A DNA stretch of 64,000 nucleotides. Source: Candidatus Forterrea multitransposorum CG_2015-17_Forterrea_25_41 (GTDB lineage: Archaea; Iainarchaeota; Iainarchaeia; Iainarchaeales; CSSED10-239). Below the pieces are notes generated by a model that saw nothing but the letters and a program-made list of their open reading frames with translations, had not been told where the DNA came from and did not search any database. The DNA is taken from positions 64,001 to 128,000 of the forward strand of contig CP045477.1 in NCBI GenBank assembly GCA_009392915.1, written 5' to 3'. A program made the position numbers and the translations under genes. Below are positions 5,554 to 11,102 of the stretch, piece after piece. Every line of letters begins with the position of its first letter. Positions within the stretch are counted from its first letter, which is position 1.

Positions 5554-7140
5554 ATGTTAGAAGACAAGTATATTACTTTTCCATATATTAAGAAAAATAC
5601 TGTGGAAAAAAGAGTTTATCAAGAACTATTGACTGCAAAAGCTATTGAAACATCTACATTAGTTGTAGCTCCAACTGGTCTTGGAAAAACCATTGTTGCG
5701 GTTTTACTTATAGGGTTTATATACAATCCAAAAAAATCAATTTTATTTTTAGCACCAACAAAACCTCTTGTCTCACAACATAAAAAATCTTTAGAAAAAG
5801 TTTTAGAAGTTGATCCTGATAAAATAATTTTTTTAACAGGACAAAATCCTCCTGAAAAGAGAAAAGAAATTTATTCTCAAAAAGGGTTAGTTATTTGTGC
5901 TACTCCTCAGACAATAGATAATGATATTAAAAATAATCTTTTAAAAGAAGATAATTTTAATTTAATAATCTTTGATGAAGCTCATAGAGCTGTTGGAGAG
6001 TATGCTTATGTTTCTATTTCTTCTTTTTTTAAAGAAGAAATAAAAAGACTTGCATTAACAGCATCTCCTGGTTATAATAAACAGAAAATTAAAGAAATTG
6101 CTGATAATTTAAAAATAAAACATATAGAAATAAAAACTGAATCTGACTTAGATGTTATTGATTATGTTAAAGATATAGAGATTGAAACTGTTTTTGTTGA
6201 ACTTGATGACGTTTCAAAAAAAATATCTAAAATTTTAGATTCTTTTATTTTAAAAAAAATAGAACTTTTAAGAAAACTTAATTTATCAGTTTCTTCAAAC
6301 TTTACTAAAAAACAAATATTAATGGTTCAACAACAATTGTTTAAAAGACTTGAATCTTCTAAAAATTCATTAAATTTTGTAGCACTTATAAATGTGTCTT
6401 TAGCTTTAAAAGCACTTTATGCAAAAGAATTAATTGAGACTCAAGGTTTTTTACCTCTTAAACATTATCTTGAAAAAGCATTTATTGATTCTAAATCTTC
6501 AAAAACTACTAAAACTTTAAATCAATTTGTAAATTCTAAAGAAATTTTAGAAACTTATTCTTTAATAATTAATTTAGATTATTCAAAACCAATTTATTCT
6601 AAGGAAAAAGAAATTGTAGAATTGGTTAAAAACTTTATTTTAAATAATCCTTCTTCAAAAATATTAATTTTTAATAATTTTAGAGATTCTGCTCAAAATA
6701 TTTCAAATTACTTAAATAAATATGATAATTTAAATAGTGTGAGATTTGTTGGACAATCTTCTAAAGAAAAAGATAAAGGATTATCTCAAAAAGAACAAGC
6801 TCAAATAATTTCTGACTTTAGAGATGGTTTAAACAATGTTTTAGTGTGTACTTCTGTTGGTGAAGAAGGACTTGATATTCCTTCAGTTGATTTAGTTTTT
6901 TTTTATGATGCAGTTCCTTCAGAAATTAGGTCTATACAGAGAAGAGGAAGAACAGGTAGATTTAATGCTGGTAAAGTTATTATTCTTTTAAATAAAGATA
7001 CAATTGATGAACATTATTATTATGTTTCTTTAAAGAAAGAAAAAACTATGAAAAAAAATTTAATTTCCATGTCAAGAGATGGAGATTTGAAAATTGTGAA
7101 AAGAAAGAAAAAAGTTCAAAAAAATTTAGGTGACTTTTAA
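5554..7140 (+). CDS. hef: Hef/FANCM-like SF2 DNA helicase (helicase half only)
   Basis: Walker A APTGLGKT, DEAH box IIFDEAHRAV, and helicase C motifs (VLVCTSVGEEGLDIP, QRRGRTGR). 528 aa, the length of the helicase moiety of euryarchaeal Hef. Confidence 0.8.
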   Translation: MLEDKYITFPYIKKNTVEKRVYQELLTAKAIETSTLVVAPTGLGKTIVAVLLIGFIYNPKKSILFLAPTKPLVSQHKKSLEKVLEVDPDKIIFLTGQNPPEKRKEIYSQKGLVICATPQTIDNDIKNNLLKEDNFNLIIFDEAHRAVGEYAYVSISSFFKEEIKRLALTASPGYNKQKIKEIADNLKIKHIEIKTESDLDVIDYVKDIEIETVFVELDDVSKKISKILDSFILKKIELLRKLNLSVSSNFTKKQILMVQQQLFKRLESSKNSLNFVALINVSLALKALYAKELIETQGFLPLKHYLEKAFIDSKSSKTTKTLNQFVNSKEILETYSLIINLDYSKPIYSKEKEIVELVKNFILNNPSSKILIFNNFRDSAQNISNYLNKYDNLNSVRFVGQSSKEKDKGLSQKEQAQIISDFRDGLNNVLVCTSVGEEGLDIPSVDLVFFYDAVPSEIRSIQRRGRTGRFNAGKVIILLNKDTIDEHYYYVSLKKEKTMKKNLISMSRDGDLKIVKRKKKVQKNLGDF

Positions 7141-7618
7141 GAAAAAATGTGATATAAATATGGATTTATTAGAATTTATAATTGAAGCAAAAAAAAATAC
7201 TTATGCATCTTCAAAAATAACTGATAAATTAAATAAAGATGGTTCTAAAGAACTTATATTTGAAAAAGATTCTTTAAAATATATTGATAAATATTATGGT
7301 TTTAATCCTTTTTCTGGTCAAGAAATTATTTTTAAAGATTATAAGGGTATTTGGTCTATGAATTATTATGGTTTTATAAAAGATCATTTAGTTTCTGAAA
7401 AAGAAGTTTATTCTTTTTTAAAAAAAGCTTTACTTAATGTTGAAAAAAGATTTCCTTTAAGAGGTCCAAATATTTATAGAGAAGGAGATTTTGAATATTT
7501 TTCAGATACTTCTGGATTTATTGAAGAATTTAATGGAAAGGAAAGAATTGATTATAATGGTAAAACTGTATATCATGGTTTTTATCATGGTGGTCTTTTA
7601 AGAGATAAATTAATTTAA
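7130..7618 (+). CDS. hypothetical protein inserted between the Hef helicase and nuclease genes
   Basis: 162-aa ORF overlapping the helicase stop by 11 nt. No recognisable motif. Confidence 0.5.
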   Translation: MTFKKKCDINMDLLEFIIEAKKNTYASSKITDKLNKDGSKELIFEKDSLKYIDKYYGFNPFSGQEIIFKDYKGIWSMNYYGFIKDHLVSEKEVYSFLKKALLNVEKRFPLRGPNIYREGDFEYFSDTSGFIEEFNGKERIDYNGKTVYHGFYHGGLLRDKLI

Positions 7619-7637
7619 TTTTAAAAAGTGATTTTAA

Positions 7638-8306
7638 ATGCCTTTAAAAGAAATAAATATTATTTGCGATACTAGAGAAAAAGCTTCTTCAGTTTTATCA
7701 GAAATTTCACTTCTTTCAGATAATGATATAAAAGTTAATGTTATTTTAGAACAATTATCTGTTGGAGATTATCAAATTTCAGACGATATTGTAATTGAAA
7801 GAAAAACTTTATCTGATCTTGAAACTTCAATTATTGATGGTAGAATATTTTCTCAATTGCAAGATCTTTCTTTTGTTAAAAGATCTGCTTTAATTATTGA
7901 AGGTGATCCTTTTTTATTGTATAATAGTAAAAGAATAAATGGTAAAGCACTAATTGGTTTAATTACTTCTGTTGGACTTAATTATAGAATTCCTTTATTT
8001 TTTACAAAAAATCAAAAACAAACTGCTTTATTTTTGTGTACCATGGCAAAAAAAGAACAACTTAAAAATGGAACTTCTGAATCTAAACTAAGGTATCAAA
8101 AAAATAAAATGTCAGGTACTCAATTCCAATTATTTATAATGCAGTCTTTTCCAGATGTAGGACCTACTCTTGCAAAATCTATTTTAAAAGAATTTAAATC
8201 TATTAAAAATATTTCAAATGCAAGTATTGAAGATTTATTAAAAGTTCCAAAACTTGGTCCAAAAAAAGCTCAAAAAATAAAATATCTTTTTGAAAGAGAA
8301 TATTAG
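7638..8306 (+). CDS. ERCC4/XPF-type nuclease domain with C-terminal (HhH)2 (nuclease half of Hef)
   Basis: ERCC4 motif GDYQISDDIVIERKTLSDL (GDXnERKxxxD) plus a terminal helix-hairpin-helix (LLKVPKLGPKKAQKI). Confidence 0.8.
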   Translation: MPLKEINIICDTREKASSVLSEISLLSDNDIKVNVILEQLSVGDYQISDDIVIERKTLSDLETSIIDGRIFSQLQDLSFVKRSALIIEGDPFLLYNSKRINGKALIGLITSVGLNYRIPLFFTKNQKQTALFLCTMAKKEQLKNGTSESKLRYQKNKMSGTQFQLFIMQSFPDVGPTLAKSILKEFKSIKNISNASIEDLLKVPKLGPKKAQKIKYLFEREY

Positions 8307-9303: not shown

Positions 9304-9846
9304 ATGTTAACTTTTTTTAAAAAAATTAAAAGAGATTTGAAAACTAAAAAAAAAATAAAAGAATCTCTTTATTTTTTATTATTTTTTATAATTTCTTTTT
9401 CTCTTATTTATTTATTATTATCAAAAACCTTAATCTATAATTTTATAAACTATTTTTATGGTTCTCTTTCAAGTATTATTCTTAATATTTTTTATGGAAT
9501 TAATACTTCTTTTTATTATGATTTTATAGAACAAGTAACTTTTCTAATAATTCCAAGTATAGATTATCCTGTTGCAATTGTTTTCTTATGTACTGGTATT
9601 TTAGAATTTTCTTTAATTGTAAGTGCTATTGTTTCAACTATTGGTTTTTCTTTAAGAAAGAAAATAAAATGGGTATTAATTTCTTCTTTCCTTGTAATTA
9701 TTTTTAATCTTTTAAGAATAACTTTTACAATATTTATAATAGATTATTTTAATTTAGAAATAGCAGATTTTTTCCATGGTTTTTTATTTAGATTATTTTT
9801 AGTAATTATTGTTATTGGTACTTATTATTTTTTCTTAAAATCTTAA
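9304..9846 (+). CDS. small polytopic membrane protein, candidate short archaeosortase/exosortase-family protein
   Basis: 4-5 predicted TM helices. Cys96 in FLCTGILEF and Arg138 in FNLLRITF are spaced 42 residues apart, reminiscent of the essential Cys/Arg pair of archaeosortase ArtA (spacing 41). This is speculative. Confidence 0.35.
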   Translation: MLTFFKKIKRDLKTKKKIKESLYFLLFFIISFSLIYLLLSKTLIYNFINYFYGSLSSIILNIFYGINTSFYYDFIEQVTFLIIPSIDYPVAIVFLCTGILEFSLIVSAIVSTIGFSLRKKIKWVLISSFLVIIFNLLRITFTIFIIDYFNLEIADFFHGFLFRLFLVIIVIGTYYFFLKS

Positions 9847-10745: not shown

Positions 10746-11102
10746 ATGAATAAAAAAATATTAAATATTTTTGGAGTACTTTCTGTTTTAGTTTTTTTAA
10801 TGTTTATTTCATTAAACTTAAGTGCAGAGAGATTTGATGTTACTGATATTTCTTACTCTTATGTAAGTTATAATTATCCATATTACCCAAATGGTCAATA
10901 TTATAATAGTTACTATAATTATTATGATTATTATATTCCAACAGGTTATGTAAATTCATATACAGGCTATATTAATTATCCTGCTTACTCAAATTATGTT
11001 CCAACTTACTATAACACTTCATATGTAACTTATCCTTCATACTATAACAACTCAATCAGTTATGGAAGTCCAGAGGCATATGTTTCTTTTAGTTGGCAAT
11101 AA
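10746..11102 (+). CDS. secreted Tyr/Asn-rich low-complexity protein
   Basis: N-terminal signal peptide (ILNIFGVLSVLVFLMFISLNLSA). The mature part is ~35% Tyr with YYNxYY repeats. The gene lies directly upstream of a giant surface protein gene. Confidence 0.6.
   Translation: MNKKILNIFGVLSVLVFLMFISLNLSAERFDVTDISYSYVSYNYPYYPNGQYYNSYYNYYDYYIPTGYVNSYTGYINYPAYSNYVPTYYNTSYVTYPSYYNNSISYGSPEAYVSFSWQ

Follow-up and report, generated by a model that had tools for sequence, protein, structure and literature searches.

A split Hef and the variable slot between its helicase and nuclease genes in an Iainarchaeota-like lineage

The Hef protein of euryarchaea joins a helicase and a nuclease in one polypeptide. 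In a 64,000-nt stretch of Candidatus Forterrea multitransposorum CG_2015-17_Forterrea_25_41 (assembly GCA_009392915.1, contig CP045477.1, positions 64,001 to 128,000; hereafter the window) the two activities are encoded by separate neighboring genes, and a gene of the Pfam family DUF5680 lies between them. We argue that this is a real ancestral fission of Hef together with a cargo slot. DUF5680 would be a dispensable passenger in the slot, neither the cause of the split nor a general partner of Hef. We give this reading a probability of roughly 80%, based on comparison of sequences across related genomes. In the scenario we propose, the gap between the two cistrons would be a long-lived slot for small accessory genes. 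DUF5680 would have entered it once, at the base of one subclade, and would then have been deleted several times. A YafQ/RelE-type toxin-antitoxin (TA) pair would occupy the same slot in other relatives.

The ORF list of the window gives three open reading frames (ORFs) on the + strand at 5554-8306, arranged head to tail in three different reading frames. The outer two are the halves of Hef. The helicase has Walker A GLGKT, DEAH, TASP (motif III) and QRRGRTGR (motif VI), along with the Hef-specific helical insertion. Pfam finds DEAD, ResIII, Helicase_C and the PF21210 helical bundle in its 528 aa, and its alignment with the P. furiosus Hef helicase domain 1WP9 runs from end to end (E 1.4e-116, query 12-500). 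The nuclease motifs are intact: DTRE, GDY...ERK...D (GDxnERKx3D) and two helix-hairpin-helix (HhH) hairpins (GPT, GPK). Pfam gives ERCC4 (2.6e-24), HHH_5 and HHH_2 for this ORF. Its best structure match is the A. pernix XPF 2BGW (E 2e-27), and it also matches the P. furiosus Hef nuclease and HhH domains 1J22 and 1X2I. The NCBIfam Hef model (NF010337, 781 positions) is shared out between the two. The helicase covers positions 3-518 with 569 bits and the nuclease covers 569-779 with 203 bits; a single-polypeptide Hef would score at least 610 bits on the full model, and the two ORFs are in different frames. This division places the breakpoint at the helicase/nuclease linker, as a preliminary description of the locus had expected.

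The fission is not particular to this genome. About 40 contigs from independent assemblies in the Iainarchaeota-like clade have separate, adjacent helicase and nuclease genes, with the nuclease directly 3' of the helicase, in the synteny L1-L10-L12 ... Cgi121-S8e. All of the close nuclease homologues (75/75, 55-100% identity) are 168-317 aa long, mostly 205-238, and none is near the length of a fused Hef. In an exhaustive search the next-nearest matches are to the C-terminal portions of fused Hefs, which are 742-801 aa long (42-46% identity). A metagenome scan also gave more distant single-ORF Hefs (L135, 839 aa; L137, 747 aa). In an indicative neighbor-joining (NJ) tree of the helicase and nuclease the split forms are monophyletic and the fused forms are the outgroup. 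With the fused outgroups and the many contigs with separate genes, the genuine heritable fission that the preliminary description had put forward as one option is borne out. We read it as old, fixed and ancestral to the clade, the Hef being of euryarchaeal type and the lineage Iainarchaeota-like (DPANN). Our literature search turned up no paper describing a split Hef in DPANN, nor one on this operon and its cargo slot.

The preliminary description had also considered that the nuclease might be an XPF-type gene in its own right, whose neighbors in relatives would be unrelated. This candidate is ruled out. The Arch_Xpf model NF040956 gives the nuclease 132 bits against a cutoff of 300, below its score on the Hef model. 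The nuclease always adjoins the helicase across the ~40 contigs, and its nearest outgroups are fused Hefs.

The same comparisons bear on whether the split is an artefact, either one Hef gene broken by frameshifts in sequencing or assembly, or a chimeric contig. The sequence is AT-rich and comes from a metagenome-assembled genome (MAG), it has homopolymer runs, and one relative (L009) is frameshifted inside the nuclease, all of which would fit an artefact. However, the middle ORF is not a piece of Hef linker: it belongs to a Pfam family of its own, with homologues. Many independent assemblies share the three-gene layout, at 57-97% identity, and the start and stop signals and the C-terminal motif of the helicase are conserved. 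These comparative data exclude the frameshift that would have joined all three ORFs into one Hef, and we give an artefact next to no credence.

Two nuclease genes among the relatives deserve separate mention. At L009:8500-8600 (Ca. Iainarchaeum MAG FAS170219_bin_363, JBBISB010000001.1) the nuclease has a frameshift after ~29 codons. Frame 0 reads MPSKEINLICDHRENASSVLSELSSLSSN followed by a stop, and the +1 frame then continues with ...EQLSVGDYQISEDIVIERK. Either the MAG has a sequencing error here, or the nuclease is a pseudogene next to a helicase and a DUF5680 gene that are both intact. At L132:6001-7218 (Ga0268280_1003522) the nuclease ORF extends to 405 aa, and its C-terminus (…LTIEPLIMMAELKAKALEG…) is like that of ribosomal protein L10, which suggests a chimeric or rearranged metagenome contig.

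The position of the break can be narrowed further. The C-terminus of every split helicase consists of a basic patch and then Q/K-x-x-[LI]-x-[DE]-[FY], with 0-2 residues left before the stop. The window helicase ends in QKNLGDF, and others end in QSTLNDFFK or QKKLSDY. The nearest fused Hefs have Q-x-x-[LI]-x-x-F in the linker, 8-15 residues upstream of the nuclease domain. Every split helicase therefore ends with a motif that fused Hefs hold in their linker, and so the sequences place the fission directly after a motif in the interdomain linker that resembles a PCNA-interacting protein (PIP) box. T. acidophilum offers a characterized example of such an ending. According to Rohleder et al. 2016 (PMC4838364), the Hef of T. 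acidophilum has only the helicase, and its final seven residues form a PIP box with a single aromatic residue. This box binds PCNA with a KD of 1 uM, and binding is abolished by the deltaC7 deletion or by I505R/F508S. The window helicase also has its PIP-like motif as its last ~7 residues, and by its sequence it resembles this helicase-only, PCNA-binding Hef. By analogy, the QKNLGDF tail would tether the helicase to PCNA where forks have stalled. The other half, an XPF-like ERCC4+HhH2 nuclease, would dimerize and cut fork or flap DNA.

The space between the two genes is variable. Our tally covers the non-redundant loci of the clade in which the end of the helicase and the start of the nuclease are both visible (loci other than the window are given L numbers). 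The slot is empty in ~13 loci, with a gap of 0-53 nt (L092, L094, L096, L102, L112, L114-L117, L125, L126, L128/129). It holds only DUF5680 in ~14 loci (the window, L008-L010, L093, L095, L003, L090, L099, L103, L108-L110, L132), only two ORFs of 87-92 aa in ~7 (L088, L121, L097, L118-L120, L127), and both in ~4. In L001 the pair precedes DUF5680; in L100, L104 and L107 DUF5680 comes first. The preliminary description held that the inserted 162-aa ORF had split Hef. That does not survive the tally, since ~13 related loci are split and yet empty. One whole subclade never has DUF5680, and a strain with nearly identical flanks does without the gene. The gaps in empty loci (0, 2, 6, 11 and 27-53 nt) have no consistent frame relation between the helicase stop and the nuclease start, and on this ground a programmed read-through or frameshift joining the halves in these loci is rejected.

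Some pairs of close relatives differ in the state of the slot. L094 is empty and L008 is filled, and they share 98.9% DNA identity in the helicase and 99.4% in the nuclease, with a synonymous divergence (dS) of ~0.03. L126/L127, L117/L119 and L102/L003 are other sibling pairs with near-identical flanks and differing slot states. In the alignment of filled and empty DNA a cassette of ~480 nt sits exactly between the helicase TAA and the ribosome-binding site (RBS) of the nuclease. At the empty site of L094 the sequence diverges right after the helicase TAA, and AAAGTGATTTT..ATG is common to filled and empty sites. The alignment has no target-site duplication or meaningful terminal repeats at the cassette boundaries, and the ORF list and a Pfam scan contain no recombinase gene in the window slot. 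A transposon or insertion-sequence element is therefore rejected, as terminal repeats, target-site duplication and a transposase or integrase are all lacking.

The middle gene matches Pfam DUF5680 (PF18931) along the whole profile (positions 1-104 of 104), with 114.2 bits where the cutoff is 25 (4.5e-33), so a profile search confirms the earlier view that it is unrelated to Hef. The window holds this one copy, which has the conserved motifs AKKNTYA, W.MNYYG, P.RGP and YHGG. Homologues with 57-93% identity occupy the equivalent place between the Hef halves, with conserved synteny, in independent assemblies, which are labeled 'Ca. ainarchaeum', 'Ca. Iainarchaeum' or Diapherotrites. Against 70 copies from other genomes, the 17 in-slot copies are monophyletic in 30/30 bootstraps, and their branching mirrors the Hef tree. 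The NJ tree has one split-Hef subclade without any DUF5680, while in the other the empty loci branch among the filled. These trees are most simply explained if DUF5680 was gained once, after the fission, then passed on vertically and lost at least 3-4 times, very recently in one case. The ratio of nonsynonymous to synonymous divergence (dN/dS) is 0.06-0.37 for DUF5680 and 0.05-0.32 for the flanking genes. Because these values are close, we take DUF5680 to be a functional gene under purifying selection.

Outside the clade DUF5680 keeps different company. There are 415 relatives in GTDB species genomes, and the family reaches Woese-, Pace-, Aenigm- and Nanohalo-archaeota, Asgard, Thermoplasmata, the candidate phyla radiation (CPR) and Firmicutes. 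No Hef half lies within 8 kb of DUF5680 in ~75 sampled loci outside the clade. Its neighbors vary widely there, often with links to mobile elements: radical SAM, MobA/MobL, NUDIX and HD proteins, and hydrolases. DUF5680 as a general partner of Hef or of DNA repair is therefore rejected (0/~75 other loci with Hef), and a lone CPR case with a DUF2779 neighbor did not generalize. The preliminary description had offered a captured partner or a selfish insertion as alternatives. Neither fits well, as the gene is long-resident, under purifying selection, dispensable, and without Hef elsewhere.

Some of these neighborhoods are worth recording for their own sake. In 11-12 CPR (Patescibacteria) loci a radical SAM gene of ~266 aa precedes DUF5680 (e.g. 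L035:7069-7869; also L041, L051, L052, L055, L058, L061, L062, L067, L070, L083). Its best match, below cutoff, is TIGR04470 'radical SAM mobile pair protein B' (5.6e-68), and it is unrelated to Hef. In Ezakiella coagulans and Peptoniphilus indolicus (L075:6429-7913, L076:6408-7913) DUF5680 is directly 3' of a MobA/MobL relaxase (2.2e-102), which implies that it is on a mobilizable element there. Other Firmicutes copies are fusions of ~220 aa with an XRE helix-turn-helix (HTH). On a 1.05-Mb CPR contig (ERZ1757541 contig_6554, L006:4464-7053) DUF5680 has a 505-aa DUF2779 protein on one side and an unannotated 187-aa ORF on the other. The DUF2779 protein has faint Cas4/RNase H-like matches and GmrSD-like and HNH genes are just upstream, so this may be a defense-type neighborhood.

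What DUF5680 does can be approached through its structure. The AlphaFold2 model (predicted local distance difference test 92.3) is a duplicated helix plus four-strand meander. Across 27 diverse members 19 columns are invariant: K11, Y15, A16, Y41, D43, G47, G53, E55, Y69, G71, L87, R101, G102, Y113, G119, F124, E128, G144 and G145. A Foldseek search of the PDB gave no significant match (best E ~0.01, TM ~0.25). There was likewise no match in BFVD (viral structures), in the PDB by sequence, in PADLOC (defense) or in PHROGs (phage). A literature search found no paper on the function of DUF5680; one unrelated paper mentions the family. The only fold theme that recurs, and it does so weakly, is the UTRA/chorismate-lyase-like effector-binding domain of HutC/GntR regulators. 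Bacterial DUF5680 is often fused C-terminally to an XRE HTH, and the position C-terminal to an HTH is typical of effector-binding domains. From the modeled fold with its invariant K, Y, D, E and R residues, this theme and these fusions we tentatively suggest a small-ligand-binding, sensor-type protein, a guess that is somewhat likelier to be wrong than right.

The two small ORFs found in relatives, which are absent from the window, encode a putative antitoxin of 87-89 aa followed by a YafQ/RelE/ParE-like toxin of 91-92 aa. The second matches TIGR00053 (YafQ) over its full length (1.8e-16), though its 60.6 bits are under the curated cutoff of 87.25. It also matches the PHROG RelE-like toxin family (1.4e-06) and a ParE model (7.7e-4). 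The first has only a faint HTH match. The simplest reading is a type II TA cassette. It is found on either side of DUF5680 in different lineages.

Several points count against the reading we prefer. Our trees are built by NJ from short proteins and can only be indicative. Divergence in the TA pair correlates with divergence in the nuclease (r = 0.88), so the pair could date back to the fission itself, and the ancestral gene could have been broken by a TA pair inserted early on. DUF5680 has been kept in the exact slot to ~50% amino-acid identity, and this could mean a functional link with Hef that is specific to the clade. The UTRA-like theme is weak and not significant. The split nucleases have no C-terminal Q-x-x-[LIM]-x-x-[FY] PIP motif, and their tails end in ...KIKYLFEREY. 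PCNA binding, dimerization and cooperation of the halves in trans are all predicted from characterized homologues; one relevant precedent is Komori et al. 2004, reference 35 in PMC4838364.

The second of these challenges can be made into a full alternative, in which an insertion caused the fission. The TA pair, or less likely DUF5680, would have broken the Hef linker in the ancestor of the clade, the halves would have gained stop and start signals after the break, and later loss of the cassette would have produced the empty split sites. The TA pair is in the slot of both major subclades, which along with its correlated divergence fits residence near the root, and the cassettes lie exactly between the helicase stop and the nuclease RBS. 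However, DUF5680 is excluded from this role. One whole subclade lacks it, as do basal members of the other, and the in-slot copies are a clade nested within the Hef tree. For the TA pair at least 10 independent losses would be needed on the NJ tree, and its occurrence both before and after DUF5680 speaks for one re-insertion or more. The cassette boundaries also lack the terminal repeats and target-site duplication noted above. We therefore think it unlikely that an insertion split the gene.

Another alternative is that DUF5680 is a captured functional partner in its subclade, a ligand-sensing regulator or adaptor that couples or restrains the helicase and nuclease. One acquisition, vertical retention down to the identity given above and purifying selection comparable to the Hef halves speak for this, and the spacing of slots with DUF5680 is tight and operon-like (10-40 nt). 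However, there were at least 3-4 losses of DUF5680, one of them in a strain whose flanks are 99% identical, and the Hef halves show no decay. The ~75 other loci have no Hef association, and an unrelated TA pair uses the same slot. We consider a partner role very unlikely. Much the same holds for a more specific version, that DUF5680 was co-opted as a third component of the split Hef, gating or coupling a PCNA-tethered helicase and a free nuclease, which we would call a long shot. Either role would account for the upkeep of DUF5680 between the two halves.

The coordinates are collected in Table 1. All three ORFs were reproduced where they had first been described (5554-7140, 7130-7618, 7638-8306). 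The 162-aa ORF at 7130-7618 does exist, but its overlap with the helicase stop belongs only to a mechanical ORF that begins at a GTG. The DUF5680 gene most likely starts at the ATG at 7160, because homologues of ~148-155 aa begin at the equivalent position with M-D/E-L/F-L/I-x-F; with this start it does not overlap the helicase.

Table 1. Features of the split Hef locus in the window, and the toxin-antitoxin cassette of relatives.
Feature	Position	Strand	Basis
Hef-type superfamily 2 helicase half, 528 aa	5554..7140	+	ORF list, Pfam, NCBIfam Hef model, 1WP9, motifs
PIP-box-like heptapeptide QKNLGDF, helicase residues 522-528 of 528, after basic patch KRKKK	7117..7137	+	single regex match
19-nt spacer from helicase stop to DUF5680 ATG; left boundary of the variable cassette	7141..7159	+	sequence
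DUF5680 gene, 152 aa from ATG 7160 (most likely start); probable accessory cargo in the inter-cistronic slot	7160..7618	+	PF18931
19-nt spacer with GTGA ribosome-binding-like element before nuclease ATG; right boundary of the cassette	7619..7637	+	sequence
Hef-type ERCC4 nuclease + HhH2 half, 222 aa	7638..8306	+	Pfam, NCBIfam Hef model, structures, motifs
Putative TA cassette in relatives	L088:5437-5994; L001:5445-5986; also L097, L100, L104, L107, L118-L121, L127		

The G+C content of the region is ~24%. Genes for ribosomal proteins L1, L10 and L12 are upstream of the Hef genes, and Cgi121 (minus strand) and S8e are downstream. By analogy the helicase and nuclease genes are probably co-transcribed. 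Two further ORFs of the window should be recorded. Directly after S8e is a 180-aa polytopic membrane ORF (9304-9846, +). The syntenic gene in L090 (8613-9143) has a Pfam Exosortase_EpsH match, and judging from that copy only, the window ORF may be archaeosortase-like. A 118-aa ORF at 10746-11102 (+) starts with a hydrophobic, signal-like segment and continues as low-complexity sequence extremely rich in Tyr, Asn, Ser and Pro (…YNYPYYPNGQYYNSYYNYYDYY…).

We see the locus as a natural experiment on the architecture of the Hef/FANCM family, in which the two activities are uncoupled exactly where the PIP box ends. It offers a two-protein system for asking whether the activities of Hef need a covalent linkage, and it bridges the 'long' euryarchaeal and 'short' crenarchaeal forms. 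The cargo slot, with DUF5680 or the TA pair, is a small example of accessory genes moving into the seam left by the fission of a housekeeping operon. We recommend that annotators name the halves as the helicase and nuclease subunits of Hef, in place of 'RNA helicase' and 'hypothetical', and that DUF5680 not be taken as a repair factor from its Hef context.

It remains to set the locus beside known systems. Like the euryarchaeal Hef (P. furiosus / T. kodakarensis; NF010337 / PRK13766), it has a helicase with the insertion domain, an ERCC4 nuclease with GDY...ERK, and HhH2. It differs in being two polypeptides. The linker of ~50 residues is reduced to a PIP-like helicase tail, and unrelated genes can lie between the halves. 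The crenarchaeal short XPF (A. pernix / S. solfataricus; NF040956) shares a length of ~220 aa and the ERCC4 + HhH2 arrangement with the window nuclease. However, the window nuclease scores higher on the Hef model, lacks the C-terminal PIP box and is phylogenetically the C-terminal domain of Hef. The XPF of Sulfolobus depends on PCNA through its C-terminal tail. Members of the DUF5680 family elsewhere have the same motifs, and the family lies between Hef halves only in this clade. Compared with type II TA systems of the YafQ/RelE/ParE superfamily, the cassette of the relatives is below the curated cutoff, and its position inside a DNA-repair operon is unusual. The Hef of T. acidophilum shares a stand-alone helicase of ~510-530 aa that ends in a single-aromatic PIP box, Q-x-x-[IL]-x-x-F, which in the window is predicted from the motif. 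The T. acidophilum protein, as described in PMC4838364, is without a nuclease domain altogether, whereas the window keeps an ERCC4+HhH2 gene from the same ancestor immediately downstream. The locus is thus a T. acidophilum-type helicase and an XPF-like short nuclease that are neighbors from one fused Hef, a lineage-specific variant of modest interest.

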